A stretch of DNA of 40,089 nucleotides from Candidatus Margulisiibacteriota bacterium (lineage in GTDB: Bacteria > Margulisbacteria > Marinamargulisbacteria > JBHPDY01): contig JBHPDY010000001.1 of NCBI GenBank assembly GCA_042577605.1, positions 1-40,089 on the forward strand, read 5' to 3'. Made by a program: the position numbers and the translations under genes. The notes beneath the pieces were generated by a model. That model was given only the letters and a program-made list of their open reading frames with translations, did not search any database and had not been told where the DNA came from. Each line of letters begins with the position of its first letter. Position 1 is the stretch's first letter. This document shows positions 1,830-28,100 of this stretch, piece after piece.

Positions 1830-2849
1830 TTAAATTCCCCCATTTCCAAGCTCCTCCAACACCTTCACCTTTTTAGTCTTATGATTATACGTTTTTAATG
1901 AATTTTTATCAAAAATAAGCGCTCCGCCAAATCCTCCGTAAACATCTGCCATAGCACAATCAATATTAATTACCCTGTTTTTATAAAAAGATCTAGCCTC
2001 AATATAGGGGTCATGAGAATGCACAATGCGTTTTACTCTAAATTCCTTAAGGATTTTATCCAGTTTCTTTTTAATAAATTTTTTTCTAAATTCTTTTAGT
2101 TCATAATCAACCATAAAACCAGCTTCTTGTTGTTTATTTTGTCTTTTTATGAAATTTTCCTTAACTTCTTCATCAGTTGTTAAATGCTCAAGCCAGTCCC
2201 GTTCCGCCCAGATCACAGATGTGCCGTAAGACAGCCAGCAGGCAGAGCGGTCATCATATTCCAGGGTATAGATTGCGCTGTAGGGAAGATTCCCGCTTTT
2301 AAAATCTTTTTCCATTTCTGTTAATCCTGCTAAACCAACTTTTCCATTATAAGGCTGGAATTTACCGCGAAAATAAGGCAGGCCAGCATGGATAAACAAA
2401 GTATCATTTTCGATATGGAACAATTTTAAATTTTTGCGCATAGCAGAGGCTAATTCTTGGAGCCTTGGGTTTTGAATGATTTTGTGTTGCTTGTATTCTA
2501 AGCCAGTACGAAAGCTAGACAAAGGGCCAAGTTCCGGGAAGACTTTTGCACCGCCGTTACCTATCCAGTCTCTGAACGCAGCTTCATCACCAGCCATAGT
2601 AGCGATAAAGAACATGTCATGGTTGCCGACCAAACCTACTGCTTTGCCATTTTCTATCAGTTCAATTACTTTTTCTGCGGTTTTTATGCTTTGTTTGCCC
2701 CGGTCCATATAGTCGCCTGTAAAAATGTAACGCGAAAACTGTTTATAACGGTCTAAAATCTCCATAAGGCGGTCATAGCTGCCATGTAAATCGCCTATGG
2801 CTAAAAGCGGAGTAAAGGATTTTTGCGCTTTCCTCTTGGTTACAGGCAT
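1830..2849 (-). CDS. PPP-family metallophosphoesterase (Ser/Thr phosphatase / ApaH-like) with an internal Lys-rich insertion
   Basis: 339-aa ORF with the ordered PPP motifs GDLHG (19-23), GDYMDRG (45-51), GNHD (75-78), HAG (154-156) and VHSHD (276-280). The HAG-to-HSH spacing is about 120 aa, clearly longer than in the minimal lambda-phosphatase-type enzymes. The start lies 9 nt after the stop of the upstream orphan gene. Confidence 0.8.
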   Translation of the reverse strand: MPVTKRKAQKSFTPLLAIGDLHGSYDRLMEILDRYKQFSRYIFTGDYMDRGKQSIKTAEKVIELIENGKAVGLVGNHDMFFIATMAGDEAAFRDWIGNGGAKVFPELGPLSSFRTGLEYKQHKIIQNPRLQELASAMRKNLKLFHIENDTLFIHAGLPYFRGKFQPYNGKVGLAGLTEMEKDFKSGNLPYSAIYTLEYDDRSACWLSYGTSVIWAERDWLEHLTTDEEVKENFIKRQNKQQEAGFMVDYELKEFRKKFIKKKLDKILKEFRVKRIVHSHDPYIEARSFYKNRVINIDCAMADVYGGFGGALIFDKNSLKTYNHKTKKVKVLEELGNGGI

Positions 2850-2858
2850 ATTAATAGT

Positions 2859-3965
2859 TTACCTGAAAAAACAGAAGATAGAATAAAAAAATTTATATAA
2901 ACAACTATTCTTTATTTTTTGGCAACCTGTAATAGGCATATCATTATTATCATCGTCTGGATCTGTGGGTATTGTTGTTTTATAACGAGGAATATTTGAT
3001 TGATTTTTCAAGTCATTGGAAGAGCCATGAGGAGAAGGAACAAGTTGAAATTTATAAGGATCTGTACTTTGTAAATTGAATTTGCCATCAGGACCTTTTC
3101 CAGCTTCTTTAAAAAGCTTTTTTAAGGCTGGGTGTAAATCGCGCCTTTCCCAATTTATTACTGGAGCTTTCTTATTTTTACCGGGAATTTTGATTGAAAG
3201 GGTGGAATTTTCAGTGGAAGGATCTTTTTCAACATAAACTGGCTGTTCTTGGCTAGAAAGCATTATAAATGATTTCTTGTGTTTTGTGCGCATTATAGAA
3301 AGCTTATTAATTTTTTTCATTAATAGTTTAAAATAATCAGCTAATTCTGGATAATATTTACATAAGAAAACAGATTTATTAACAGAGTTCCTTGATTTGC
3401 GAGTTTTACCTAGAGCTTCGTTGCAAAAATAATCCAATTTATCAAGTAAAAAATCTTCTATTGTTTTGGCTCTTTTTTTCTTTTTATAGTTCGCTTTAGT
3501 TGTAGTGGAGGCTAGATAAAAATCAGTTGCAAAAAAATACAAATTAAAAATAACTAATAATTTATGGGAGCCATTTTGTATGAGACTAGTTGGTTGAGGT
3601 GTAACTTTATTTGTTTTTTTTCTCTTAGACACGAGAGAAATATTTTCCTTAGAACATCTCTTTTTTATCGTATTTATCTCTTCCCATTTTGATAAAATGT
3701 GACCAAAAATATATTCCCTGTCAGAACTTTTAAAATCAACAAATCCTGGATACAAGATTAATAGTCTGTGGAACGAGACCGGATCTAAGCGGTTAATAGC
3801 ATTAACTATTTGACGAAAATGCTCATCACCAACTTCTTTGGGTGTTTTAGTATATAGCCATGTAATTTTTGGAGTTTGTAAATAAGAATTTCCATTCAAC
3901 GGATAAAATTTATTTTGTAGAAAAGTAACAGATCCTAAATGGTCTGGCAATAATTTTTTATACAT
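2859..3965 (-). CDS. Orphan protein, paralog A of the MxKKLLP...SCLYKFF family
   Basis: 368-aa ORF with clear similarity to the 4191..5444 product. Matching blocks are MYKKLLP/MQKKLLP, REYIFGHILSKW/GEYIFDLILSKY, KLLVIFNLYFFATDFYLAS/KLKIILNLYIFTIDLYMVT, YYPELADYFKLLMKKINKLS/HYPDLKDYFELLMKNIDKLS and NSCLYKFF/HSCLYKFF. Conservation between paralogs supports real coding. Confidence 0.75.
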   Translation of the reverse strand: MYKKLLPDHLGSVTFLQNKFYPLNGNSYLQTPKITWLYTKTPKEVGDEHFRQIVNAINRLDPVSFHRLLILYPGFVDFKSSDREYIFGHILSKWEEINTIKKRCSKENISLVSKRKKTNKVTPQPTSLIQNGSHKLLVIFNLYFFATDFYLASTTTKANYKKKKRAKTIEDFLLDKLDYFCNEALGKTRKSRNSVNKSVFLCKYYPELADYFKLLMKKINKLSIMRTKHKKSFIMLSSQEQPVYVEKDPSTENSTLSIKIPGKNKKAPVINWERRDLHPALKKLFKEAGKGPDGKFNLQSTDPYKFQLVPSPHGSSNDLKNQSNIPRYKTTIPTDPDDDNNDMPITGCQKIKNSCLYKFFYSIFCFFR

Positions 3966-4190
3966 GTTATTTCCGGGTTAAATATTTGCTAAATCCAACA
4001 CCTGGAATAAATATTTTCCCCACTACTTTGAAAATGCACTGTATGTCATCTATAACCATCAGGGGAGTAAAAGACTTCTGGATCTTACTATTAGGCGAGG
4101 GCATATTATTAGTTTACAGGAAAAATAAAAATATCGAAAAGGTGGTTACAACTAAAAATACCTTAAGTACAACAATATAAAATGATTAGT

Positions 4191-5444
4191 TTAGTTAGGT
4201 TGGTCATCACATGAACCAGTGAAGATAAAAAGAAAAAACTTATACAAGCATGAGTGCTTTATCTCTACCAGAGAAGAGAGATCATTATCACCCCTATCAT
4301 TGCCACTGTCGCCAATGGGAGCGGGTGTGGGAGCGGATGTGGGACCGGGTGTAGGTATGTGCTTTTCGGTAACTATCCTGTTAGGTTCTTGTGGCGTTGT
4401 GACTTCTGTGAATTTTTCAGAGGTGGGCTTAGCAGGATCTTTTGGAGATGAGAACATAGGAGGAGGTGATTCATTAGGCGCTATATGTTTCAGTGAAGCT
4501 TGAGCCTCGCGCGCCTTATATATTAGCATATCCTGCTCAAAAACACCTCTGAGGTTATTAGGCAAAGGGAAGCACATTTTTACCCATTTTAATCCTGACA
4601 GTTTCATCCCGAGAAGAATATCAACTAGCTGATCATCACTTAGATGGGTTAGGGAATTATTAGAACTGTGCGTTTGATTTGAATAGTTTTTTATCCTATG
4701 AGTAGATTTCTTTTTAACAGGGGCCGGCTTTTTTTTGATGAAGAGATCTATCAAGTGTTTATATTTTTTATTAGTCACGGAAAGCTTATCAATGTTCTTC
4801 ATTAATAGTTCAAAATAATCCTTCAGGTCCGGATAATGTCTCTGTAAAAATTTGCCAGGTCTAAAATCAGATTTAACAAATGTAGGATCTCTGAGCTTTT
4901 GTTTTTTGAATAGTGTGTCCAACTCTTCAAATAAAAAAGATTTTATCAATGCTTTTTTGTTTTTTTTATATGCAAAATTATTCTTGGTAGTTACCATATA
5001 TAAATCAATTGTAAAAATATATAGATTAAGAATGATTTTTAATTTATCTATTTCATTTGAGGAAGAGTAAGTTGGAGTAAACGGATAGATAGCGTTTTTA
5101 TTTGAAGGGCGAAAACTGAATTTCAAGGGCGTGTTTTTATTAAGTGAGGCATATTTTGATAAAATAAGATCAAAAATATATTCACCTTTATCATTTATAA
5201 AAAGAATAAGTCTTGGACTAATAAATAATGTTTCGTGAAAAGAATTAATGTCTAAGTTATCAATAGCCTTGCTTAGTCTTAAAAAACGCGACCCATCCTT
5301 TCCTTGATGCATAAAAGATTTCTGTTGCAGCGATAACCATGATTTTTCTGCGTTGGATAAAAAATTATTGCAACCTAATAAATAGTATTTCTTTTTGATT
5401 AAATTATCTGAGTTAGTTGTTTGTGGTAATAGTTTTTTTTGCAT
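4191..5444 (-). CDS. Orphan protein, paralog B of the MxKKLLP...SCLYKFF family
   Basis: 417-aa ORF, homologous to paralog A (see its evidence). A Pro/Thr/Ala-rich linker (PTPGPTSAPTPAPIGDSGNDRGDND) precedes the conserved tail IKHSCLYKFFLFIF. Confidence 0.75.
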   Translation of the reverse strand: MQKKLLPQTTNSDNLIKKKYYLLGCNNFLSNAEKSWLSLQQKSFMHQGKDGSRFLRLSKAIDNLDINSFHETLFISPRLILFINDKGEYIFDLILSKYASLNKNTPLKFSFRPSNKNAIYPFTPTYSSSNEIDKLKIILNLYIFTIDLYMVTTKNNFAYKKNKKALIKSFLFEELDTLFKKQKLRDPTFVKSDFRPGKFLQRHYPDLKDYFELLMKNIDKLSVTNKKYKHLIDLFIKKKPAPVKKKSTHRIKNYSNQTHSSNNSLTHLSDDQLVDILLGMKLSGLKWVKMCFPLPNNLRGVFEQDMLIYKAREAQASLKHIAPNESPPPMFSSPKDPAKPTSEKFTEVTTPQEPNRIVTEKHIPTPGPTSAPTPAPIGDSGNDRGDNDLSSLVEIKHSCLYKFFLFIFTGSCDDQPN

Positions 5445-5478
5445 ATATTAAATCCAAAACACTTAGTACTAATATTTC

Positions 5479-6120
5479 TTAGATATCTGAAAAACTTTTT
5501 CTTTCTTCTGTATTTTGCTTAGGTTTTTTTTTGCAGAATGTAATAAAAAACTTAAAAAAGCGATAAAAAAACTTATATTTAACAGGAACAACATTATCGA
5601 TTTTCTCTTTTTTACCTTCCTGTATTATCATAAAAGATTCTTTTACTACCATCCGGATATCAGGCTTAAAAGGATTAGAATCCTGGGGAGAAGATGTAAA
5701 AGTATTCTGATTGGCAGTAATAATAAAACTAATATGACATTTCCTAATCTTGTAAGTCAATTTGATAGTGTTACCTTCTTTGTAATCACTTTTATTCAGA
5801 AAAGGAATAGCTTTTTTAAGCAAGCGTTCCCAGGGTAAAATAGATTTTTTCTGATAGGAGTCCTTTAGTTCTTTATGACCTTTTACACGAAGTTGAAACT
5901 TTTTTTCATTTATTTGAAGATTAACAATTTTTTTAGAACCATAATCAAAATGGTTGCCTAAACTTCTAGATAAGCATTTGGCTATTTGTTCCCAGTCAGC
6001 ATTGTCCAAATCTCCATCAGATTCATCACATTCATAAGATTCATCATATTCATCAGATTCATCAGAAGAAGAGACAGAATAGGAAATATATTGTTCGCAA
6101 GGTATTATTTTTTTGTGCAT
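5479..6120 (-). CDS. Orphan protein, short paralog C of the same family, with an acidic N-terminal tract
   Basis: 213-aa ORF. The N-terminus MHKKIIP matches MxKK[LI][LI]P. It is followed by the acidic tract SSSDESDEYDESYECDESDGD. The block ILPWERLLKK resembles INWERRDLHPALKK in paralog A. The C-terminal tail is VKYKFFYRFFKFFITF. There are only 34 nt to the start of paralog B. Confidence 0.65.
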   Translation of the reverse strand: MHKKIIPCEQYISYSVSSSDESDEYDESYECDESDGDLDNADWEQIAKCLSRSLGNHFDYGSKKIVNLQINEKKFQLRVKGHKELKDSYQKKSILPWERLLKKAIPFLNKSDYKEGNTIKLTYKIRKCHISFIITANQNTFTSSPQDSNPFKPDIRMVVKESFMIIQEGKKEKIDNVVPVKYKFFYRFFKFFITFCKKKPKQNTEERKSFSDI

Positions 6121-6251
6121 GGTGACTCTTTATAAAAAGTATCGGTAAAAAGCTTTTAAAATTGCATTGAAATCTACTGTTAGTTTTTTATTAGGGCAGC
6201 GGTTGCCGTCCTAACTAGAATTTCTATGCTTTTATGCTAAAATCAAATTGC

Positions 6252-8045
6252 ATGAAAAACATCCGCAATTTTTCCATCATTGCCCACATTGATCATGGCA
6301 AATCTACCCTTTCTGACCGTATGATCGAAAAAACCCATACTGTGTCTCATAGGGAAATGAAAGAGCAGCTATTGGATACCATGGATTTGGAAAGAGAACG
6401 TGGCATTACCATAAAACTTCAAGCCGTCCGTATGCAATACAAAGCCAAAGACGGGCATTCATATCAATTGAACCTGATCGATACTCCCGGGCATGTGGAC
6501 TTTACCTATGAAGTTTCCCGCTCCCTGGCTGCCTGTGAAGGTGCCTTGTTGCTGATTGATGCTACCCAAGGGATCGAAGCTCAATCCGTAGCTAACTTCT
6601 ATTTGGCTTTGGAGAATGATCTGGAGATTATTCCTGTCATCAATAAAACCGACCTGCCTTCAGCAGAACCGGAAAATGTTGCCCAAGAGGTAGAACAGGT
6701 CTTTGGCATACCTGCTGATGAGTGTTTGTTTTCCAGCGCTAAAACAGGTGAGGGCATCGAAGATATTTTAGAAGCTGTTGTTGCCAGGGTGCCTCCTCCT
6801 GAATCATCCAATGAAAAAGAATTAAAAGCCCTGATCTTTGATGCTAATTATGATGTTTACCGTGGGGTTGTAAGCTATATACGGGTTTTTAGCGGTGAAA
6901 TCAAAAAAGGCGAAAAAATCCAGTTCATGGCTACCGGAAGAAAAGCAGATGCCTTGGAAGTTGGTTTTTTTAAGCCTCAGATGACACCTGCTGCTTCAAT
7001 CAAAGAAGGGGAAGTAGGTTACTTAATAGCTAATATTAAAGATGTGGGCGATACCAGGGTAGGGGACACTATTACACTGGTTAATGCACCAGCAGCAAAA
7101 CCACTGACTAACTACAAAGAGGCCAAACCAATGGTATTCTGCGGTTTTTATCCTGTGGATACAGATAGATTTAATGACCTTAAGGAAGCCTTAGTGAAAT
7201 TAAAATTAAATGACTCCGCTTTACACTTCATGACTGAAACTTCCGAAGCGTTAGGTTTTGGTTTTAGGTGCGGCTTTTTGGGCCTGCTCCACCTGGAAAT
7301 TATCCAGGAACGTATTGAGCGTGAGTTCAATATTGAGCTGATCGCCACAGCCCCCAATGTCACCTACAGAATAACCAGAACAGACGGCGAGGTCATGATG
7401 GTCGAAAATCCTAATCGTTTCCCCGAAAGCACAAAGATTGAAACAGTCGAAGAACCGTTCATGGGTTTATCCATTATTACGCCCAATACTTATATCGGTG
7501 CGGTAATGGAACTGGCCAGCGAGCACCGGGCGGTCTACAAAAAAGCAGAATTTATCGACGCTCTAAGGCAGATGATCACATTTTCAATTCCTTTAAATGA
7601 GCTGATAGCCAATTTCTTTGACAAACTCAAATCACGTACCCGCGGTTATGCCAGTATGGATTATTGGTTTGAAGAATATACACTTTCCAAGCTTTCAAAA
7701 GTAGATATCCTAATCAATAACGAACCAGTTGACGCCCTTTCATTTATAGCGCATGAAGGCAAGGCCCGTAACATAGCTAAAAAAATGATTGAAAAGCTAA
7801 GAAAACAAATCCCCCGGCAATTATTTGCCATTGTCCTGCAAGGCGCTATTGGCAGCAATATAATCTGCCGTGAAACCATCAGCCCTCTAAAGAAAAACGT
7901 GACAGCCAAATGCTACGGCGGAGATATCACCAGGAAAAGAAAACTACTGGAAAAACAAAAAGCCGGAAAAAAGAAAATGAAAAGCATTGGATCAGTGGAA
8001 GTACCCAAAGATGCATTTATGGCTATACTCAAGATCAGGGATTGA
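6252..8045 (+). CDS. lepA: Elongation factor 4 (translational GTPase LepA)
   Basis: Has the GTPase motifs [14 protein letters not shown] and NKTD, plus the LepA-specific C-terminal region (...[25 protein letters not shown]...). The track ORF starts at 6234, but the [19 protein letters not shown] start at 6252 matches the usual LepA N-terminus. Confidence 0.95.
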
Positions 8046-8869
8046 ACTTGGCCCGCATTTATCCCTATTTTTCTGAAAACTTAAAGATAAAGAAAGAATT
8101 ACCAACAGAGTTTTTTTTAACAAATCCAGGATTTTTATATGGTTATGGTTTGTTTGAGACTATTTTGATCAAGAATTCTAAACCACGCTTGATCGATAAG
8201 CATCTTCAAAGGTTATCAAGTTCAGCCAATACATTGAAAATTCCGTTTGATTTTAATAGAAATGATATTAAAAAGATGATTGAAAATGTAGTTCAAATTA
8301 ATCAAGTAGAAGACGCCCGCCTTAACATCTACCTGACTGCAAAAGATATTAAAGATAATAATGTGGTTTTACTAATAGTTCTAAAAGAATTGCCCCCCAA
8401 AAAGGATTTGGACAAAGCTTTTGCCCTGGACATTAAAAAAGCCTTTTTCCCCAGAACAAATTTAGACAGCCATAAAAGCATGGCCTATTTAAAGAACATT
8501 TGCGAAAAAAGGGCAGCCCAGGATTTTGATGATGTCATTTTATATGACCATGAAAAAAACATACTTGAGACCACGTCTGCCAATATATTTTTCATAAAGG
8601 GAAAAACTGTAATTACGCCCCAATCAAAGGTTATTTTGCCAGGTATAGCCAGAAATTTTGTGATAAACAATTTAGCCAAACTAGATTTGACTATTCAAGA
8701 GAGAAAAGTTCATTTGACTGAGTTGGCAGATTTTGAAGAAGTATTTTTAACAAATTCATTAAGAGGGGTAATTAAAGTTAAAAATATCAAAGGATACCCA
8801 AGGCTATCTTCCGGAAGCATTACAAAAGAAATCTCATTTTTATTTCAATCATCTGCGCCATCTGCGTAA
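8042..8869 (+). CDS. Class IV aminotransferase-fold protein, aminodeoxychorismate lyase (PabC)-like
   Basis: Has [19 protein letters not shown], the candidate catalytic-Lys context [31 protein letters not shown] and [14 protein letters not shown]. There is no in-frame ATG downstream of the lepA stop. The likely start is TTG at 8042 (a TTGA overlap with the lepA stop) or at 8048. The start is therefore uncertain. The last codons (SAPSA) read into the ATCTGCG repeat array. Confidence 0.6.
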
Positions 8870-8996: not shown

Positions 8997-10703
8997 ATGC
9001 AATATCTAGAGGTCCAAAAACCAGTCCCCAGAAACAAATCCTTACGAACACATCTTTCAAATATCTCCTGGGATTGGGGATTCGCGAACTTTTTTATGGA
9101 GGAAATCCCATTTTCAGGCAGGACCGGACACCTGTATGCTAAGAAACTAGTGGATCTTTACATTGCTTTGCTCCAAAATGAATTTAGCATAGAACCTCAA
9201 CAAGCTTTTAAGGCAGCAGAGCCCTTTTATGTTTGTGAGTTCGGCGCAGGCATGGCCCTTTTGTCCAAACATTTCCTAGATGTACTAAAAGAAGATTATC
9301 CGGAAGTATATGTCAATACACGTCTGATCATTACAGATTCTTCAGCAGAAATGATGGAAAATCTGCAAAAAATATCTGTTTTTTATAACCATTTTGACCA
9401 GATTGAGTTCCAGGCGCTGGACAGTACTGACTTTGAGGGCTGGCCAGATAAAAAACCAGTTCTTGCTTATAGCTCATATCTGCTTAGCTGTTTTTCCTGC
9501 CGTCACATTGAATATAAACAGGGCAAAATAAATGAATTGTTAGTCAAGACATCAGTTCCCGAAAATGCTATTTTACTTGATACCACATCTTTTCCTTACC
9601 AGGTGATGGATGCCCAACAGATAAAGAAGTGCATTTTAAGTAACGACCGTGACAAACTAAAGGTGCTAGGGGCCCGTATAAAACACTTGTTAAAAGAGGA
9701 AATTATCACCCTTGATCTAAATGAATCGGATTTATCTGCAAATGAAAAGCAGGAATTGACTGGTTTATTAGGTTCAGATGAAATTAAAAACGATGTTTGT
9801 TTTAATTATAATCCCGGGATTAAAGCCCATATAGAAAAGGCCCTGAACAGCCTGCACGAAAAAGGCATATACATTGCCAGTGATTTCGGGTCTGTGGAGT
9901 TTTATCACCCGGACCCTGACAAGCTTACTAAATCCTATGGTAACAGCTTATTCCGTTCCGTAAGCTTTGCCTACATTAAGTCATTTTGCGGTCATAACAA
10001 GATCACTAGTTTCTGTTCTTCACGTCCCAATGATTATGTGCAGGAATGTGTGTTTTCGAACAGCAGCCAAATAAGCCAGACGCTAAAAAAGTCAATGTCC
10101 GGATTCATCAGCAGTGAACCAACTGAAAAATTGCAGTCAGTACTGAGATCATTGGTAGACATTAATCCGTCGGATAACTATTTAACGGATTTTGAACAGG
10201 CGGTAAGTTCGCTTTCCGGAGAAGAACAAAAAGATTATTTCTTTTTAAAAAGCTGTGCTTCATTGCTATTAAGCCAGGGCTTAAATAAGCAGGCGTATGA
10301 ATATGCACTTAAATTATTAAACACCTATGCAGAATTTGCCATAGACGGGTATAGCATCCTGGGTATGATCTGCCAGGCCCAGAATTTTTTTGATGAGGCC
10401 CTGGAGTGTTATGCCACAATCATTAATATTTGCGGACATGATTGGGCTACACATGAAGCATTGGCAAGCGTGAATTATAAATTAAACAACTACCAAAAAG
10501 CAGTGGAGCATTTGGAAAAAGCTATTTATTATGCCCGCACTAATAATATCTGGCCGCTTGTCTATATGCTTAATGCTATTCACGAAAAACTCGGCCAGCC
10601 AGATAAAGCCGATCAGATTGCCGCCAATGTCTTTGACCTGGCAAAAAAACAAAAAGGCCTGATCCCCGAAGAAATCTTAGAAGAATTCCAAAAAAAACAG
10701 TAA
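8997..10703 (+). CDS. Putative SAM-dependent methyltransferase-like protein (MidA/COG1565-like core) with C-terminal TPR repeats
   Basis: 568-aa ORF. It has a glycine-rich VCEFGAGMALL motif followed by ITDSS, and a later IYIASDFG block resembling the MidA-type DYG motif. The C-terminal 150 aa or so have TPR-like periodicity (AYEYALKLL...FDEALECYATII...YQKAVEHLEKAIYYA). The family assignment is by motif only. Confidence 0.45.
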   Translation: MQYLEVQKPVPRNKSLRTHLSNISWDWGFANFFMEEIPFSGRTGHLYAKKLVDLYIALLQNEFSIEPQQAFKAAEPFYVCEFGAGMALLSKHFLDVLKEDYPEVYVNTRLIITDSSAEMMENLQKISVFYNHFDQIEFQALDSTDFEGWPDKKPVLAYSSYLLSCFSCRHIEYKQGKINELLVKTSVPENAILLDTTSFPYQVMDAQQIKKCILSNDRDKLKVLGARIKHLLKEEIITLDLNESDLSANEKQELTGLLGSDEIKNDVCFNYNPGIKAHIEKALNSLHEKGIYIASDFGSVEFYHPDPDKLTKSYGNSLFRSVSFAYIKSFCGHNKITSFCSSRPNDYVQECVFSNSSQISQTLKKSMSGFISSEPTEKLQSVLRSLVDINPSDNYLTDFEQAVSSLSGEEQKDYFFLKSCASLLLSQGLNKQAYEYALKLLNTYAEFAIDGYSILGMICQAQNFFDEALECYATIINICGHDWATHEALASVNYKLNNYQKAVEHLEKAIYYARTNNIWPLVYMLNAIHEKLGQPDKADQIAANVFDLAKKQKGLIPEEILEEFQKKQ

Positions 10704-10934: not shown

Positions 10935-12236
10935 ATGTTCGTTGCACAATACTATTTTGCAACAGGCTCAGCAAGTATAAAGAAAGGAAATAATTTGAAC
11001 TTAAAACCGATTGATAGTGTTTCACATAGAAAAGTTTCCGGATCTTCTAAAACAGAAGAAAGCCAATCCGTAATTAAAGATGTAAGAGCAGCCACTCCAA
11101 AAGAAAAAATTGAACCAACCCCGCATAAAAAAAAGGCCGACACCATGGCCCAGGCACTAAAGCCTGAGAGCTACAGCCGTCCCATTACCCGAGAAGATAT
11201 TATTAACCTCTTAATAAGCATCAAACAGCAGCCATCTGTAAAGAACCAGTTAATTGCCTCCACATTATTACAGCAGGGCCTAGAAGTTTCAGAGAAGAAT
11301 TTTGCCAAAGTAGCAAGGTTTTCTAATATGGAAAACATTCCTAATATCATTAAATCCATCGTGCTTGCCTTAACAAGGGGCCTGGATTCTTTTAAAAGTG
11401 CGGACATGATCTCAAAATTCTTATTGAATGATACTCAGCTGGCATCCCAACTACAAAAAGCAACAGCAGCGCTAAAGAATTATTCTACGATCTTCCAATT
11501 CAGCAGAGAGCTGTTTAATCCGCAGTTGTTTAACAGTTTTGCAGCAGTGATTTCTGAGATGAACGAAGAACTCCAGAAATGGATGAAGCAAAGCGGCAAA
11601 GACAGTAAAAGCCTGAGGCAATTCATTAGTCTTGATAAAGGAAAGATGGTGAGTAGCCTAAAATCCTTTTACGAGCTATTGGGAGGTATCGGCCAAAAAA
11701 TAGCAGACCCTAATATACAGCAGCAGCCAATTGCCCAGTCTTTGTCAGAACAGATCCAGAACCTTAAAAAAGAAATATTATCCACCATTGAAGCTATTAG
11801 TACCCAGGCAGTATTATCAAAAGATTCTATCCTTCATAATGTAAATAATTACTTTTATTTTCAATTCCCAAATCCTGACGCCCAGCCGCCAGGAGACATA
11901 GATTTATTAATCAAAAAATCTAACGGTAAAAAGGCTGGCGCTATCGATCCTGAGAACACAACTTTAATATTAAGACTGGAAACAACTGATCTTGGGGAGA
12001 TATATACAAAAATCGATGTTAAGCCAAACAAAAAAATATCATTTACTTTTCAGACAGATAGAACAGAAGTAAAGCAGGAGATACTTAGCTCAGCCTCAAA
12101 TCTTAAGGAAACTATGGAAGAAATAGGTTATACTATGGTAGGTTTTCATACAGCGCGGATCAAATTAGATGTGAAAAAAGAGATTTTCCCATCTTTTGAT
12201 CTGGATTCTTTTCCGCGTATTAAAACAGAGGTATAG
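10935..12236 (+). CDS. Flagellar hook-length control protein FliK-like
   Basis: 433-aa ORF. The C-terminal region TLILRLETTDLGEIYTKIDVKPNKKISFTFQTDRTEVKQEILSSASNLKETMEEIGYTMVGF fits the FliK Flg_hook pattern (L.L.P..LG.v.v.i.....i.f......r..L......L...L...G). It is immediately followed by an FlhB-C-terminal-domain gene, which is a recurrent gene pair. The N-terminal start is uncertain. Confidence 0.55.
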   Translation: MFVAQYYFATGSASIKKGNNLNLKPIDSVSHRKVSGSSKTEESQSVIKDVRAATPKEKIEPTPHKKKADTMAQALKPESYSRPITREDIINLLISIKQQPSVKNQLIASTLLQQGLEVSEKNFAKVARFSNMENIPNIIKSIVLALTRGLDSFKSADMISKFLLNDTQLASQLQKATAALKNYSTIFQFSRELFNPQLFNSFAAVISEMNEELQKWMKQSGKDSKSLRQFISLDKGKMVSSLKSFYELLGGIGQKIADPNIQQQPIAQSLSEQIQNLKKEILSTIEAISTQAVLSKDSILHNVNNYFYFQFPNPDAQPPGDIDLLIKKSNGKKAGAIDPENTTLILRLETTDLGEIYTKIDVKPNKKISFTFQTDRTEVKQEILSSASNLKETMEEIGYTMVGFHTARIKLDVKKEIFPSFDLDSFPRIKTEV

Positions 12237-12247
12237 GTAAAATATAA

Positions 12248-12646
12248 ATGGCAAGGCAGAAGTCGAGAGCAAAATCAAAATCAAAAGAACTTTTAAAAAA
12301 ATCAAAAAAGCTTAAAAAACATTTGGATGAACTGGACCTGCCCGAACGGGAAAAGCTAAAAGCGGTAGCTATTAAATACAATGTCAAAAAAGACAAAGCG
12401 CCCAAGATCATAGCCGCAGGAAAAGGCGTTATAGCCGAAAGGATTCTGAAAATCGCAGATGAATTCGACATACCATTTTTCGAAGACCAGGCCTTAACAG
12501 AATTACTCTCTAAAATAGATTTAAACGCCAATGTTCCGGCTGAGCTTTTTACCTTGGTTGCCGAGGTATTAGCTTTTGTCTACCAGCTGGACAAAATGGC
12601 GCAGAAAAGAAAAGAACTCCAGGACAAACGTCGTTCCGATAGATAA
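12248..12646 (+). CDS. FlhB C-terminal-domain-like protein (EscU/YscU/HrcU-family soluble domain, YlqH-like), lacking TM region and NPTH site
   Basis: 132 aa. The segment KAVAIKYNVKKDKAPKIIAAGKGVIAERILKIADEFDIPFFEDQALTELLSKIDLNANVPAELFTLVAEVLAFVYQLDK matches the conserved post-cleavage C-terminal domain of FlhB. The N-terminus is a Lys-rich tail. There is no membrane domain and no NPTH motif. Confidence 0.8.
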   Translation: MARQKSRAKSKSKELLKKSKKLKKHLDELDLPEREKLKAVAIKYNVKKDKAPKIIAAGKGVIAERILKIADEFDIPFFEDQALTELLSKIDLNANVPAELFTLVAEVLAFVYQLDKMAQKRKELQDKRRSDR

Positions 12647-19196: not shown

Positions 19197-22100
19197 TTAC
19201 TCCACAAGCAGCTTTTTATCATCAGTATATTTCTTTGCAATTAGTTCAACAAAAGGAGAGTTATCTCTTAGGAAATTTTCACGTGTCTTTTTTGTTTGTG
19301 TTTTTTCCTCAAAAACATCCTCATCCTCTACTAGCACCTTTGTTTTTACTTTTGATTCGGTTTTTGTGCTGTTTAATATTTTGCTTCTCAAAAATCTCCA
19401 AACATACTCCGCAGTATTTTTCACATCGGAAGCTATATTGGCAGCTTTGTCCTTGCAGATCTTATTAATTATTATCATAAGATGCTTGCGATGAGTGTTG
19501 AGTTGCTGTTCAAATTGCCCGCACAAAAATGTGCTTGTCATAACATAGTTACGTAATTTATGGTACTCTGTTATGCGCTCACGAGGATATTTAACCGCTA
19601 GGTTTGAAAATTTTGTGTTGGTATTAGACCTTAAGTTAGCATTATCAGACTTCGCTGTAACATGCTGACAAAAAACATCCCATACTCGGGGATCAAGTTT
19701 TTTAACTAGCTCAAAATAATCTTGTCCAGCCATAGCTTTTAATAATATCTCAAATAAAATGTCACGGTTGTTTTGTATGGCTAACTTGTCTGATTCATTT
19801 GTATTAGGTAAGCCGAAGTCATTCTTTTCAACAAAATTGTGCAGGAATTTCAGCTCGCTTTTATCAGTTGCATCTCCTCCGGTTGCGTTAAAAGCATTTG
19901 ATACCTGTAGCTGAAGGTCTACTTTGTTAAGGCCCTTAATTTTTCCTTTAATTTCAGCAGAGGTTATGGCAGTATAAGCTATTACCATTTTTGGTTGATC
20001 TCCAGACTTCCAGTCTTTTTTATCTTTTTTATTATTGAAGTGTTGCATATATATTGTTAATTGCTTTTGTTGAATAGCCGGATACTTAAATGCAATTTTT
20101 GTAAAAGTAGATGTATTGTCGTCCCTCATGCTGATGGTGGGTTTTGCAGTAGTGATCTTTTCACAGAATTTTGCCCAGCATCCAGGATCTACTAAGGCTA
20201 TTAGCTCAAGGTACTCCAGATAATTTGTGCCAGCCACAGCTTTAAGCAGGATCTTGTATAAAAGATTTTTATTATAAAGTATTTTTTGCTTATGCGTTTC
20301 CTCAACACCGGTTATACCAAAATTAGTACCGTCAAGCTTAAGCCAGTTAAACAAGAATTCAAGCTCATTTTTGTCATCACCATCACCCATAGTAGCAATT
20401 TTATCTGAAACGGATAATTGTTCATCCAACATCCCATGAGTTTTCAGTAAACCTTTAATTGAATTGGGAAGAGCATTATATTTTCCCAACATCTTAGCCT
20501 GGTCCCCGAATTTCCAATCGGATTTTATTCTGCCTTTAACGTTTTTAGTCAGGTAATGCCTAATATAAATTGCCAGGTCCTCAAGATGCTTTGTGGTTGG
20601 GGTAGTAGTATTAAAAAGTCCTAAGACAGCTTGTAGAAACTTCTGGATATTCAGAACAATTGGATCAGAGGCTGGATTTCCGGCAAAAACACCTGGATAA
20701 ATTTCTTTCAAGAAATCAAACAAGCTCTGGTTTAATTGAAACTGGTTTTGAATTTGAACAGGAACAGTAGCCTCAATTTTTGTTTTCAGGGCATTATTAA
20801 ATTTTGTTAGCACAAGATCATGGTTAGTTCGAATATCAACGGAAGTTGCGGAATTAGTATCCGGAATTTTATTTTTTAGTGTTTCTGTCAGAAGGATTGC
20901 TTCCGGATCGAAAGTTAATCCCAGCGTAGCCAGGTTATAGCGTATTGGCATTGGTAAAGAATGCAGAGCGTTTATCTGTTCTACCGTATACTTGTAATCC
21001 TTAATCAAGGTAGTAGCAGTTAAGAATGCAAGCTCACCTTTAAAGAGAGTTGTAAGGTTCTTTAATACATTAAGCGGAGGTAAACTTAATTCCGGTTTTT
21101 TTTCGCGCTTTTCATAATATTCGTAGCTCGAGCTCGTGCCTTTAATCATCTCTAGATAACTCTTCAAATAGTTTTTAAAGGTATCAACTTTGGCATTTTT
21201 CGCAGTAGCATCAATACCAGCGCCAGCAACAGTAGATAATTTCATTACATTAAGTAAGAAATCAAACACTATCTGACTATTATTAAATTGCTGAGTGATC
21301 GTTCTTTCTGCGTTTTTGTGTATTTTATATTCCTGGCTTGTTAGGTTGCTTTTGTTAGAATTAACTGTATTTATCAGTATGACATTCTGTAGAGCATAAA
21401 TCTCATTTGACATTATGCCGATCTCTTTTGGATCAGTAACCGTGGCGGAGACAGTGTTAAAACCTACCTGGGCATCTTGTATTAATTCAGCCGAAGCTAA
21501 TTTCTTTCGTGTTTCTAAAGGTAATGCCATTATTTTCATTTTGGTTATGTCGCCCAGTTCATGAACAGGTTTGTTAAGCGGCGCGCTTCCATCAATGAAT
21601 TGTTTTACAAGATATGTTATGCATTCTGCGTCAGCCTCACTTATCATTAAATCTTTCAAGCTGACAATAAAATCCTTAAATTTTACAAATTTAGTAAAAT
21701 CTGTTGTTGATAAAGTGTCTGTTGATGAATCTGTATACTTTTTTAACGCATCAAAATATGGCACACAGATCTGTTCCAGACGATTACGTTTGACCAATTT
21801 CTCCTCATTTATAAATAATTTAAGAATAGGCATCATATGAAAGACTACCCTTTGTTCCCTTTGGTGTCTTTTTATATCTGAATCGAAAATGCCAGATTTG
21901 GATTTAATGCTTTTTTGGTTTAGCTCCATTACCTTATTGGCCAAGTTAATAATAGAGGAAGGGATTCTTTCGGAACCCGGATCAGTGAACAGAACCGCCA
22001 TCTTTGCACGCTGGTCACCCATTACTGTTGTATTAGGGTGTAGTTTAAATTTGACATTTAAAAGATTGTGCTTGTGCAGTAGAATTCTAAGTGGAAGCGG

Positions 22101-25100
22101 AAGTTTATAAACCTTTCTATTTACATTATTTGAGGACGGATTTATTTCATATTCTTTTATGAATTTTACCATGTTTGATATGTCGGAGGAACTCATGTTT
22201 TCCGGAAGGTCAGGAAATCCGGTCTGAGAAAGTAGATTTGCTTTTCTTTTCTGAATTTCTAGCAAACAGTCTTTAATCATATTGTTAAATGTGGTTTTAT
22301 CTCCACCATCAATACTGTTATCAGCAAAAGTAAATTCACCAAGCCCCAGCTTTTTAAGCAGAACTCTTAATGCCTTGATAATATGTGTATTGTCACCTGC
22401 GATTCCCCCTGTGGCAAACACTGCTGCCCTAGCGTCATCCAGGAGTTTTTGCAGCCCAAGAATTTCTAGGAACCCAGTTTTGAATAAGGTATTTATACTT
22501 AAAATGCGCTTGATTTTATCTTCACATAAAGCTAGTCTTTTCTCAAATTTGCCCTTATCTCCAGTTGTGATAGTATTATGATCACCAATATCCAGGTCTG
22601 GTATGCCTAATGCTTTACTTAAGGCCTTCAGATTCTTGATAATATCAGCATTGTCACCAGCTGTACCGGTAGTAACAAAGTCATGACCTTTACATGATTG
22701 CAACCAAGAACCGTCATAGATTGTAAGGATTTTAGCCCGGCAGGCATAAATGATCTTATTGAAATTAGCTAGAGAGGCATCATTATCGTCTAAAATGGAA
22801 ACATCTATTACCAATTTGACTCCTAATACTTTTAGCTTGGCTATCACATTAGTGTTATTAGTCCCGGTTGTAGTATCAAATTTGCAATGCTCCCATTCTT
22901 CAAGATTGAATAAATCTTTATTAATTTCATAGGAAGTCTTTAAAGAAGGATCTTTAATTACCAGGGACTTAAAATCACTCCAATATCTAAAATTTAATTT
23001 CCTGTTATCAACACCAGTTTCGGTTGGATTTTTAAGTGAATTTTTTCTCATAAAAGTTAATATGGTTCTTCTGGCCCAAGGATCTAGTTTACTAAACTCA
23101 TTAGGTTCATAAGCTAAGGCATGCACGAATTCAGGCATGCCTATGTAGCCAGCAATCCCCTCCGGAGATAAAAACTTTTTCTGTAATTCGGGAGGAAGTT
23201 GACTAAAATCATCCACGACGGACTTAGTCAATGATTCAATGTTAAAAATAAAGGACGCTTTATCATCTAAGTTTTTCTTTTTTTCATACAGCTTACTTAA
23301 GCTCCTCAAAAAATTAAAGAAAATCACTATTTTATCTTCATTGCCTTTGTTATTTTCGATAAATTCATCAACAAGGGTTTTGAGGTGATTCCCCAATATT
23401 TTAAGTGTGCTCTCATTGAATGTGTCTGGTGTGTTAAAGACTACGTCGTCAAAACGGCCATAACTAATGGTATAAGTCTTTTTTTCTCCTACTTCACTTG
23501 CATATGTCCCCTGTATTTTAAATTTACTAACAAAAGTTTGAAGTTTGGTACCGTTCGCATTCCCTCCGAGTTGTGCTTTGGCATCTACTAAAGTCATATC
23601 CAAGCCAGGAGATTCTTTGGCATAAGTATTTACAACTATGTTGGTGTTGGTTAGGAGTTTAATTATTTCTGAGCGAAAATTGTGGCCGGATGGATCATTT
23701 TCTTCTTTATAAAGAACTTCGCTTAATTTTATTTGTGTTTCAAATATGTTAATTATGCCTGTAAATCTATTTTTTAGTTCAGTTAATTTTAGACTGCGAG
23801 TGTTAAAGCCACCAGCAGTAGTTTTGTTGACATCTCCTATTAACACCTCTAACTGCTTTAACAATGATTTTACGTATTCAAGTTGTTTATTTGCTTGGGT
23901 TATCTTGAATTCACTATATATATTTCTAGATTTAAAAGCGGAGCTGTACATGTTTTTTGTCTTGTTCATTTCTAGGAGCAGGATCAATTCAAAGGCATAT
24001 AGCTGTATTTTTGTTACATTGGCAACACCAATGACATTGTGAGTCTTTCTTTCTCCTGTGTCTGTTTTTGAGCGGATTACTTCTAGAATATCTTTTCGCT
24101 TGGTTTTATTTTCTTTGAGATATTCTGCAAGCATAGATTTGAATATAGGGGAACTCAAAAAACCAGGTGGCAAAGTTCCCGGATTTTTATAATAGTATAC
24201 ATCCAAGAACTTTGTTACTAAGTTTTTCATGCTCTGAATAACGCCAGCATTGATTATCTTTGTAGGCAATACAATTAAGTACATCTCAATAACTTGAAGC
24301 ATTTTATTGCATTTATCCGGCGAGAGTTTATCATTTGCAACATTTCCGCTAGTTGGTATGGCATCCCTGAATTTATTTGAAAATAGGACTGTTAGTCTTG
24401 CCAGGATTTTAACGCTAATTTTATTGGCGTTTGCATATAGCTTGCCTAAATTAGGATAATCTACTCCGGTTACAGCTTTATAATGTAATTTAAAATCTTG
24501 ATATTCGCGATATAGTTTGATTAATTTTTTTAGTGATGGAAGATCAGTTATATGTTTGTCTTCTATTGTTTCAGGTATGCCTTTTGATAATTCTCTGGTC
24601 AGTTTTTCTTTTCTTTTGCTTACTTCATTGAGCATTTTATTATAGGTGCGGGCATATTCTTGGAATATCTTAAAAGCCTCGTAGAGTTTAATATGAGGGA
24701 ACAGTTTTTCCTTTGGCTCTACAGGTCGTTTAAGGATAAAGAGCTCTGGTTTTATTAGTTGGTTATCTGTCAGGACAGAGGCTAAGGTTGCAGTGGTTCC
24801 ACCAGATATGTCTTCGAGCTTAATTTTGTTTGCATCTAGTATTCCTGGATTTCCATTTAATAATATGATCAGTTCACTGATCTTTTTCAAGGCATTCCTG
24901 AAATCGATAGATTGGTGTTTTTTATCATCATATTTAATACCGGATGTTTCTATTTTAGCTTTAGCATCTGTTAGAATAACGCCTTGTGATTTAATACCGC
25001 TCTTTTCCAACTTATCATCCTGGTAGAATTCTTTGGAATACAAATTGATTTTCTTCATTGTGTTGTCTAATTCTTTCTCTAAAACAGTCCAAGCCTTCTT

Positions 25101-28100
25101 ATTTGTATCAATATTGATATATTTCTTTAAAACCATTAATTTTGCATAGAGGCGAACCATTTTGCTGATTTTCTTGGCAGAGGTGTCATCTGAGACAAGA
25201 ATTTTATTAACATTTTCGGCTTTTAAAGTGTTTGTTTGTGTTACTAGATAATGCTGCTGGACAAGTTTAAGCGCATCAAGGTTCTTGCCCTTAATCTGAT
25301 CTTCCGGGCCTAAAGTCGCATTTAGCTTGGACACAGTGAGAATTAATTTATTAAGCTCTTCGAAATTTGTTTCGAAATTACCTGAATACAAGGCATAGTT
25401 GCCTAAATTAGCGTGTATGAGCGGTAAATTCTGTCCATCATATTTAGAATGAACAGTATTGATATTTGATTTAGCAATTCCCGTTTGACGCCCCATAGCT
25501 TTTCCGATCTCTTTTAATGCCTTTCTCAAAGCTTCAAACGCTGCTTTTAGTTTTAATTCAGTTTCTTTGTGTCGGATATTCTGGAGCTCGACTAGTTTAA
25601 GAAATTTATTCCCCTCTTGGATCTTTTTTTTAAAACCCTCCAGATCATTAATATTATTAGTTAATCCCAATGTATCACTGACGGATGTCATCCCTGTTGC
25701 TTTGGATGAAAATAATAGAAAGCTACTTTTACATTCGTCTAATTTAGTATTTAATGATTCTTTTGAGTTTTTAAGATATACATCAGATTTGTATATTGCT
25801 GAAAAAGCAGTTTGAAATACGCTGAAATCTCTTTCCGTGCTTGTGAATTCAGTATGAAAACCGGTTACTAAAGTATGGAGTTCTTCCATTTTCTTAACTA
25901 TCTGGAGGTTCTGATTAACCATCTTGTTATGCTTTATACTTACATCCATGATGGAAGAATGATCTTTTTTCATCTCATTTAGCATCTCAAATTCGGCTTT
26001 CAATATATCACACGCGTAGCGAAGCATATCTAACTGTACAATAACAGGAATAGAAGGATTCCTTTTAGCCAAGCCTTGTTTCTTTAGCGCTTCAATCTTG
26101 TTATCTATATTATATTGAGCATTATAAAAATCATCATCATCCTTAGGCATGAAACCCAGTTCCCTCAAAAGAATAATAACATTTTGGCGGAAGATAAGCT
26201 TGTGATTTGCTCCTGAAAACTTAAACTTAAGCCTATTAAATACCAGGTTCGAATCTTTTGAAAGCCTATACATTGTTGGGTCCCAAATAAGTAAGTATTG
26301 TTGTTTCATTGGAGTATTGATATTGTTCTTCAAATGCTCATTGAAAGAAAAATCAGATAATATAGATTTCATCAACGGCCCTAAAAGAAGATTGTAAGCA
26401 AGTGTTGCCTTTTCCTCTTCATCAGATAGACCTAATTTTATCTTAAGCCCCTTAATACAATCTTCAAATCTTTGGTTAAAATTCGATTTAATAGAATCTG
26501 AATCAAGCATAAGAGGTGGATGCGATATAAATTTGTTCGCAAGCATATTAATATCAGTCACTAACCTGAGTAGTTCTTTTTCATCGGAAGGTAATTTTCC
26601 GGATTTATAAATATCATGACAGGATCGAAAACGGTACATTGTCCTGCAAAAGTTTAAAACATCTTCTTCTTTATTAAGATCAGCAATAAGGCCCCTTTTA
26701 GCAAGATGATCGATCAGCATGACGGATCTTTTTGTGCCTAGTGTTGATCTTGTGACTTTTGGGTTTTTTGCAATCCTAAGTTTAAAAAATTTAGCAATTA
26801 CGCGCTTCTGGCCAGTGTTTATTTTTTTAGTTACTTTTTTTGTCATTCGTTCTATGGACGTTTTCCTAAGGGATTTTCCAGTGTTGAAAAACTTTTTCCA
26901 CACTAGTAGATTTTTTACTAATCCTTTAAATTTATCCTTATTAGTAAGCAACGACTCGAACTTTATACGATATTTAATTTGAAGTTTTTCTTTGCAGCTT
27001 TTGATCGCCGCAAGAAAGACTGGTTTATCAGTGGACTCGTTAGTCATAGAAAATGCCACACGCAATTTCTTGCAAACATATCTAAGCTCTTTAATTGACG
27101 CTGTATTATTTTTTCCTTCAGAATCATCAAATACATGTTTAATAGCAATGTCTAGAGCATCTAATTCTTTTCCCAGCTCAGGATCATCAAATAGATCAAA
27201 TAAGTCTCCGGGTGTTTGGACGTTTTTAACACTTGTTTTATCATTGATTATTTTTTGTATTTCTTCACGGCACTCCTCAATCCTTATCCTAAGTTCAACA
27301 AGTGTACAATTATTTACCAGTTCCGTTTTATTTCCGGAAAACAACAAATTACTTAGCTGATTAATAGAACGGACATCTGTTGTTGAATCTAATTCAAATA
27401 AAGCCTTGAGTTGAGTTAAATAACCGCGCAATTTATCATGAGACCTATCAGAGAAAGATAAAATGAAATCATCAATATTTTCATTTGTTAAAACGCGGGC
27501 TCTTATTTGGATTATCCCGCCTAGTTTATTCTGACATTTTCTTCTTCTTTCTCTAATTTCGCTAGAAGTAGAAATTTCTGTTAACTTTAAGGTTATTGTA
27601 TCTTCAGGAAATAGTATCATGTGCATAGAATTTACAAGCCCTATAGTCTGGACCTTGTTTTTATTTAATGCCTCAGAAGAAAAAGATAATTTCAGATGGC
27701 TTAATAGCGCTACTATAAATTTATCCTCAGCAAAGATATCTTTAAAGTAACTGGCATACAAGGGTTTGAAATCGTCAAGAGCATGAAAATGCGCAAAGAG
27801 CGTACCCTTAGCCACAACCTTTATCTTTTCCAGGATGTCTATGACGGCTGCTCTAGATTCATAAAAACTATTAGGCACCAACGTCTCTAGCTTTGAATCA
27901 ATTTTAAGGGGATGCTTCGGTGCGCATGACATAGGATTGACAAAGGATTTTAAAACTCGTTCAGACTGTAAATGATCATTTTCAAAAACATTCTGATCAC
28001 CAAGCATAAGGCCGCTGCCCCTGAGCGTCTTGTTTGTAAGTGATGTTGCAAAGACCTTATTACTGCTTTTTTGCAGTTTTAATAGCGCTTCAAAATTTAT

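Follow-up and report, generated by a model that had tools for sequence, protein, structure and literature searches.

Two paralogous genes and a neighbour with a different body share short terminal motifs, including a candidate membrane-binding tail, in a Margulisiibacteriota bacterium

Introduction

Why would neighbouring genes keep the same two ends when one of them has nothing else in common with the others? This question is raised by a locus of Candidatus Margulisiibacteriota bacterium (contig JBHPDY010000001.1 of assembly GCA_042577605.1), in which three consecutive minus-strand genes, referred to here as A, B and C, start with the heptapeptide M-x-K-K-[LI]-[LI]-P and finish with an aromatic tail centred on YKFF. 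They lie in a window of 40,089 nucleotides (nt), the whole stretch of DNA that was analysed. A first-pass annotation had described three open reading frames (ORFs) of 213, 417 and 368 residues with these motifs and had considered them to be three paralogs whose ends might act as membrane-binding or sorting tags. The ORFs are present as described, and both motifs can be read directly from the sequences of all three. Sequence comparison presents the trio as two paralogs and one gene that shares their ends only, rather than as a three-member family. We assign a probability of about 45% to the reading that these genes form, together with a phosphatase of the PPP family, a lineage-specific and fast-evolving cluster whose cytoplasmic proteins would use the tail as a peripheral, in-plane membrane anchor.

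Results

A and B are paralogs and C shares their ends only

Comparison of A and B revealed that they are true paralogs over their full length (BLASTP 2e-32, 29% identity), and the internal blocks that the first-pass annotation had listed for the two larger members were found in both. Identity depended on the region, with 35% in the N-domain, 21% in the linker and 57% in the tail. At the nucleotide level, the second codon position was the most similar between both genes, followed by the first and then the third, and the ratio of nonsynonymous to synonymous substitution rates (dN/dS) was about 0.6, with dS being saturated. The codon-position order and the dN/dS ratio, together with the existence of ORFs of 213-417 codons (A to C) at a guanine plus cytosine (GC) content of 29-34%, indicate that A and B are real but fast-evolving coding genes. 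The N-termini of A, B and C are firmly defined, since an in-frame stop codon lies 1-4 codons upstream of each ATG.

The low-complexity linker previously noted before the tail of A and B was also recognised. It is rich in P, K, S and D, and it comprises 111 residues in A and 159 in B. Within the B linker, a 12-nt in-frame repeat of 3.1 copies (4316-4352) encodes the Pro/Thr/Ala-rich stretch PTSAPTPAP, while a 9-nt in-frame repeat of 5.8 copies in C (6015-6066) encodes an acidic Ser/Asp/Glu run, SSSDESDEYDESYECDESDGD; both repeats are possible length-variable tracts. Regarding net charge, A and B are strongly basic (+30 and +22, respectively) and C is mildly so (+8).

The proposal of three paralogs held for A and B but not for C. 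BLASTP of C against A and B gave nothing significant (E of at least 1.7), the hidden Markov model (HMM) built from A and B scored C at -4.2 bits, and the interior of C compared to A and B by shuffled Smith-Waterman alignment yielded z-scores of -0.85 and 0.73, respectively. At the DNA level, the similarity of C to A and B was limited to about 34 nt of the tail, and the last 45 residues of C aligned with a z-score of about 3.5. The C body could also have been a copy of A or B that was hidden or out of frame; this was rejected, since neither tblastn in all frames nor blastn, HMM or shuffled Smith-Waterman comparisons showed similarity beyond the tail. Judging from these comparisons, the common ground of C with A and B consists only of the M-x-K-K-[LI]-[LI]-P start and the YKFF-centred aromatic tail. 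The retention of just these two ends by C agrees with a functional importance of the ends.

The shared ends are constrained as peptides

The sharing of both end motifs is not a matter of chance. In six frames, the N-terminal motif was expected 0.01 times and seen four times, three of them at real starts, while YKFF was expected 0.65 times and seen three times, each in one of the tails (expectations from block-shuffled window DNA). In A, B and C, YKFF sits within the last 40 residues. Both the N-terminal motif and the YKFF tail were absent from 4,344 ORFs of at least 100 residues drawn from 160 unrelated loci. A comparably aromatic or interfacial C-terminal 12-mer without a transmembrane-like segment occurred in 4-6 out of 2,721 background ORFs, most of them spurious antisense frames. 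No further tail-bearing protein was found in the 40-kb window or in L081 and L082, the metagenomic contigs that encode the LepA proteins closest to that of the window.

The idea that the termini are the most conserved parts of the proteins was partly borne out. Between A and B, 11 out of 14 tail positions were identical (IK.SCLYKFF..IF), which ties with the internal block DYF.LLMK.I.KLS (also 11 out of 14), whereas the N-terminus reached 7 out of 14, with six identities among its first seven residues. Within SCLYK, synonymous differences between A and B were present at four out of five codons (AGT/TCA, TGT/TGC, TTA/TTG and AAA/AAG), the AGT to TCA difference at the Ser being a change of Ser codon family, and the two Leu codons of the heptapeptide are synonymously different as well. 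These synonymous differences show that the constraint on the tail and the heptapeptide is at the level of the peptide and not of the DNA.

The same codons bear on the alternative that conservation acts on the nucleic acid, with the tail codons overlapping a promoter, a ribosome-binding site or an RNA structure and with A-rich early codons aiding translation initiation. Consistent with this explanation, the phosphatase start lies 9 nt past the end of the A tail, codons 3-4 are AAA AAA in all three genes, and reading of the sequence revealed no clear Shine-Dalgarno sequence at any of them. However, the synonymous changes in SCLYK, one of them across Ser codon families, argue against it, as does the location of the other tails: more than 100 nt separate that of B from the next start, and 17 further codons come after that of C. 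In addition, promoter-like sites occurred at shuffle level, no terminator-like site was found within A-B-C, and Rfam gave no match. We therefore consider conservation at the nucleic acid level extremely unlikely.

A conserved Cys in A and B had also been pointed out. The first Cys, that of SC, is indeed shared by these two proteins and only by them, and a second one is present past YKFF in all three, 8, 11 or 14 residues after its Tyr. A CaaX prenylation box, with Cys at position -4 ahead of two aliphatic residues and the final one, is not a shared feature: A ends in CFFR, a formal fit with an aromatic 'a' and Arg as X, B ends in CDDQPN, and C extends 17 residues past its Cys.

The aromatic tail is a candidate peripheral membrane anchor

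The tail is the most favourable 12-mer of each protein on the Wimley-White interfacial scale, with -7.5, -6.0 and -7.2 kcal/mol in A, B and C, respectively, and 5-8 residues of each tail 12-mer are aromatic (F or Y). In A and B, the tail lies within the last 23 residues, behind the P/K/S/D-rich linker. In C, no helix of the protein is more amphipathic than that of the tail (hydrophobic moment 0.78), behind which 17 polar residues remain.

That the tail is too short for a transmembrane helix, as previously proposed, was confirmed by its hydropathy. Over the last 40 residues, the highest Kyte-Doolittle mean of any 19-residue window was 0.47 in A, 1.11 in B and 0.82 in C, and the summed Hessa apparent free energy of the best tail 19-mer amounted to +12.0, +8.4 and +11.1 kcal/mol, respectively. 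The hydrophobic run spans 12-14 residues and is broken by Lys or Arg. Hydropathy and translocon-scale energy thus indicate that the tail is not a classical transmembrane helix, and no 19-residue window of A, B or C reaches transmembrane-like hydropathy. The lack of a Sec signal peptide was corroborated too: no N-terminal signal or hydrophobic segment was found in any of the three proteins. Beyond MxKKLLP their N-termini are hydrophilic, and none of these contains the most hydrophobic 19-residue window of the protein, which is internal in A and B and corresponds to the tail in C.

These values also bear on whether A, B and C could be true tail-anchored inner-membrane proteins, in which the tail would be a single C-terminal transmembrane segment. 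Like bacterial tail-anchored proteins, they are devoid of an N-terminal signal and combine a cytoplasmic body with a hydrophobic segment that is placed at the very end of the chain (PMC3087755, PMC6794478). Moreover, the hydrophobicity threshold of E. coli tail anchors is far below that of internal transmembrane domains, and moderately hydrophobic ones insert unassisted (PMC6794478). However, the extreme C-terminus of tail-anchored proteins carries a single transmembrane domain that is strongly predicted (PMC3087755), and A, B and C lack such a domain. A run of just 12-14 residues with internal Lys or Arg, Kyte-Doolittle values of 0.47-1.11, Hessa energies of +8 to +12 kcal/mol and the polar residues behind the C tail all argue against such a segment. 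Since the tails fall short of transmembrane hydropathy, a true tail anchor is less likely than a peripheral one, and we regard it as very unlikely.

AlphaFold2 models were obtained from a two-sequence alignment for A and from the single sequence for C. For A, the model proposed an all-helical body at residues 45-240 and an unstructured stretch at residues 240-346, the linker having a predicted local distance difference test (pLDDT) score of 22-28, and the tail was predicted to be helical in both A and C, at low confidence. A Foldseek comparison of the low-confidence model with the PDB yielded nothing at E <= 0.001, as expected for such models, whose fold is thus unusable. Altogether, the low-confidence predictions for A and B depict an N-domain of about 230 residues that is entirely helical, then a linker that is disordered and prone to repeats, and finally a C-terminal helix of 14-18 residues that is aromatic, basic and Cys-containing.

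Membrane association of the tail, which we infer from its physico-chemical properties and which these support, is the most likely role. The tail would act as an in-plane helix that binds the membrane surface, in the manner of the MinD and FtsA C-terminal helices, while the flexible linker would connect it to the variable body and so hold the latter at the cytoplasmic face of the membrane of the cell. The heptapeptide represents a second peptide-level feature under constraint, and the phosphatase might act with the membrane-tethered A and B as a partner or on them as a substrate. Several points weigh against a peripheral anchor. Amphipathicity is weak in the A and B tails (hydrophobic moment 0.35-0.55), which are rather uniformly hydrophobic and resemble truncated hydrophobic segments; the mean pLDDT is low, with 38 for A and 37 for C; the N-terminal heptapeptide is left unexplained; and, as no homologs were found, tail conservation is judged from three sequences.

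A tandem duplication involved the start of the adjacent phosphatase gene

The phosphatase gene starts 9 nt past the stop codon of A. Next on that strand come hldA and hldC; lepA is on the opposite strand, divergent from C. Its product matched Pfam Metallophos (1.2e-14), the NinI-like PHROG (6.5e-25) and, in the PDB, PP1/PP2A and 1v73/2z72, its residues 254-318 matching the Shewanella cold-active phosphatase of the last two entries. It is a divergent member of the PPP family, whose closest relatives share 27-30% identity over about 45% of its length. The distant phosphatase homologs were located within NAD/ADP-ribose islands, and nothing resembling A, B or C was found among their neighbours.

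Between B and A, we found a relic of the phosphatase 5' end, 46 codons long, in which the catalytic GDLHG motif has decayed to DDIQC. When the DNA running from the tail end into the phosphatase start was aligned between both units, the z-score was 11.4, with 0 out of 500 shuffles reaching the score. The relic and the junction homology therefore indicate that A and B are tandem duplicates of a unit that consisted of one gene plus the phosphatase start. A third phosphatase relic at the C extension and the C-B junction is not claimed, as the z-score was 2.0 (27 out of 500 shuffles) and that of the A junction compared to C was 0.5. Similarly, a degenerate second tail past the stop codon of B, suggested by a MAFFT alignment, was rejected (z < 0).

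The 9-nt spacing and the co-duplication suggest a partnership between A/B and the phosphatase. The coupling to a PPP enzyme and the Ser/Thr/Pro-rich or acidic Ser-rich variable regions likewise suggest a partner or substrate link. Speculatively, the phosphatase and A/B could be functional partners, with A and B as its membrane-tethered partner or substrate.

The spacer between the phosphatase gene and hldA (1676-1829) presents two perfect GC-rich hairpins, CCCTCTCTT..AGAGAGGG and GACGTTGCA..TGCAACGTC. Its RNA fold gave a z-score of -3.4; no T-run is located behind the hairpins, and terminator scoring was negative.

Table 1. Positions of the A-B-C genes, their shared ends and the phosphatase sequences in the window
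Feature	Position	Strand	Description
Gene A	2859..3965	minus	ORF, 368 residues; predicted helical N-domain at about 1-235, P/K/S/D-rich linker at about 236-346, then aromatic tail
Gene B	4191..5444	minus	ORF, 417 residues; A paralog with a longer linker
Gene C	5479..6120	minus	ORF, 213 residues; body unrelated to A/B; same N-terminal heptapeptide, acidic run, aromatic tail, basic extension
PPP-family phosphatase gene	1830..2849	minus	339 residues; lambda/NinI-like, Shewanella-phosphatase-like; predicted Ser/Thr or Tyr phosphatase
Heptapeptide of A, MYKKLLP	3945..3965	minus	Leu codons synonymously different from B
Heptapeptide of B, MQKKLLP	5424..5444	minus	
Heptapeptide of C, MHKKIIP	6100..6120	minus	
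Tail of A, IKNSCLYKFFYSIFCFFR	2862..2915	minus	residues 351-368; predicted helical
Tail of B, IKHSCLYKFFLFIFTGSC	4209..4262	minus	residues 395-412; then DDQPN
Tail of C, VKYKFFYRFFKFFITFC	5533..5583	minus	residues 180-196; then KKKPKQNTEERKSFSDI
Relic of phosphatase 5' end	3967..4104	minus	46 codons between B and A; MPSPNSKIQKSFTPLMVIDDIQC compared to MPVTKRKAQKSFTPLLAIGDLHG in the intact gene

The cluster is a lineage-specific insertion of orphan genes

A homolog search had been suggested in order to define the family, and it returned the queries only. The A+B profile retrieved just these two proteins from a word-indexed search of 5.8 billion proteins, from an exhaustive HMMER scan of 1.84 billion representatives, and from genome, metagenome and viral contigs, while C alone retrieved only itself among the 5.8 billion proteins. 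Neither A, B nor C matched a family at E <= 0.1 beyond noise in Pfam, NCBIfam, PHROGs, PADLOC or the PDB sequences, the best PDB profile match having E = 0.1. Exact-protein look-ups of window proteins found no further sequence of this genome. On the basis of the homolog and family searches, A, B and C are orphans confined to one lineage.

The genomic context was consistent with a restricted distribution. The best LepA match among GTDB species representatives was 59% identical, with matches spread over several phyla, and the closest LepA proteins on metagenomic contigs were 69% (L081) and 66% (L082) identical. In L082, hldA directly adjoins lepA, and in L081 a single aldolase gene lies between them. 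Downstream, L081 shows the gene order of the window (aminodeoxychorismate-lyase-like, methyltransferase-TPR, FliK-like and FlhB-C-like). The phosphatase, A, B and C are absent from both contigs, which indicates that the 4.3-kb block at 1830-6120 is a lineage-specific insertion between hldA and lepA. Mobile-element boundaries were looked for, but neither direct nor inverted repeats of at least 9 nt flank the block. The GC content of A, B and C (29-34%) is lower than that of the flanking housekeeping genes (38-43%).

In such a locus, the shared ends might have no dedicated function and be leftovers of common descent or of terminal recombination in a tandem array that decays or diverges rapidly. 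The dN/dS ratio of about 0.6, the repeat-rich linkers and the pseudogenised phosphatase copy depict a turbulent locus, and the lack of detected homologs is compatible with this explanation. Exposed aromatic C-terminal tails are typical elements for recognition by proteases such as Lon and Tsp, and the tail would then be, at most, an exposed hydrophobic degron by which the amount of protein is kept low. However, a drift that erased the C body should also have erased its seven N-terminal residues and its tail, and the synonymous differences in the A and B ends argue for purifying selection on the peptide. Moreover, intact ORFs of 213-417 codons are very improbable in AT-rich DNA without selection. 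An absence of function at the ends is thus distinctly unlikely.

Another explanation is that the heptapeptide and the aromatic Cys tail are the two parts of a sorting or secretion signal, acting as address labels on variable middles that would be the cargo, possibly effectors. Several observations agree with this alternative: C has an unrelated body and yet retains both ends, both ends are constrained as peptides in proteins without a Sec signal, a Cys follows the aromatic run in A, B and C, and the low-GC, lineage-specific insertion is a setting often found with effector genes. Type III effector families undergo terminal reassortment, by which end modules become shared among unrelated bodies, as with the WEK(I/M)xxFF N-termini of Salmonella. 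A short terminal module common to otherwise unrelated proteins is also what C presents with A and B, although the type III families count tens of members and a known secretion system, whereas here the putative signal, which would be bipartite, occurs in three adjacent genes.

Indeed, the motifs are limited to these neighbours and do not occur in any other protein of the window or in any ORF of L081, L082 or the 160 other loci. No transporter, sortase-like or processing enzyme is adjacent, the linked gene being the PPP-family phosphatase. Among the ORF translations of the window, which look like unknown or housekeeping proteins, no sorting enzyme was noticed, and the ten that were scanned with Pfam or NCBIfam gave no such match. 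As no homologs were found, there is no co-occurrence signal, and a local tandem duplication would also leave shared ends. Thus, of the earlier proposal of a membrane or sorting tag, the membrane-binding half fits the interfacial energies, while the sorting half found neither further tagged proteins nor adjacent machinery. A sorting signal is, in our opinion, unlikely.

Other genes of the window

The start of lepA is probably the ATG at 6252 (MKNIRNF...), as in L081 and L082, rather than that at 6234. The next ORF, aminodeoxychorismate-lyase-like (7910-8869), overlaps the lepA end as listed, and its true start is probably located further downstream. The methyltransferase-TPR gene is single in the window (8997-10703) and present in two tandem copies in L081 (10967-14378). 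Positions 10935-12646 encode a FliK-like protein with a Flg_hook domain and, after it, a small protein whose similarity is limited to the C-terminal domain of FlhB (TIGR00789). This pair is kept in L081 (15157-16821), where flagellar rod genes come after it.

The window also contains two giant ORFs of about 33-34% GC, one of 5,068 residues at 19197-34403 on the minus strand and one of 1,696 residues at 34905-39995 on the plus strand. Neither has a Pfam match, and the 1,696-residue ORF has no NCBIfam match either. These ORFs may be of more interest than the A-B-C trio.

Discussion

MinD, FtsA and FlhG are established examples of proteins that bind the membrane through a weak amphipathic helix at their C-terminus (PMC6803595, PMC4252000). 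The proteins described here are alike in carrying a short helix, in this case a predicted one, at the extreme C-terminus, preceded by a flexible stretch and combining hydrophobic or aromatic residues with Lys or Arg, in a cytoplasmic host without a signal peptide. In contrast, A, B and C match nothing in Pfam and are not homologous to the ATPase folds of the MinD, ParA or actin-like type, and their tails are far more aromatic (5-8 F or Y out of 12 residues) and contain Cys, those of A and B being more hydrophobic than amphipathic. The resemblance is therefore a functional analogy and not family membership.

The signals of sortase, exosortase and rhombosortase substrates (LPXTG, PEP-CTERM and GlyGly-CTERM) require an N-terminal Sec signal and, at the C-terminus, a motif, a basic cluster and a transmembrane helix that is about 20 residues long, and they go with a cognate enzyme and many tagged proteins per genome. 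Neither a signal peptide nor a hydrophobic run of transmembrane length is present in A, B or C. An analogy, and only an analogy, is offered by the Bdr proteins of Borrelia. They reportedly have, in work attributed to Zuckert et al. in 1999 and Roberts et al. in 2000, a conserved N-terminal part, a variable, repeat-containing middle with Ser/Thr-rich or acidic motifs and, at the C-terminus, a short hydrophobic tail that would keep them at the inner membrane. Both groups are lineage-restricted, multi-copy and devoid of signal peptides, with a variable middle and a short hydrophobic tail. They differ in that Bdr shows no sequence similarity to A, B or C (no Pfam match) and occurs in many copies on plasmids or prophages, compared to three chromosomal genes beside a phosphatase. 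The function of Bdr is stated as unknown (PMC3303823).

The boldest interpretation would be that the heptapeptide and the YKFF-aromatic-Cys tail constitute a new bipartite address label for a targeting, secretion or lipidation pathway, with interchangeable middles as cargo and more tagged proteins across the genome. We consider this very improbable. If it were true, the label would be read by a pathway of a flagellated lineage of low GC content that has not been cultivated and whose genome codes for giant orphan proteins as well. Should the two ends mark many proteins of the full genome, a new targeting signal would be defined and the importance of the locus would be greater. As it stands, the trio is a curiosity of one lineage, and a new export system is unsupported.

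The locus itself provides a small and clean case of gene birth and turnover, combining a duplication with the decaying start of a neighbouring gene, repeat-driven linkers and a third gene that has the ends only. If the tail is a peripheral membrane anchor, it would be another case of the well-known arrangement in which a soluble body is joined by a flexible linker to a C-terminal lipid-binding helix, here in a family without relatives. Such an anchor would mainly help to annotate this lineage and could serve as a membrane tag that is very aromatic and can be transplanted.

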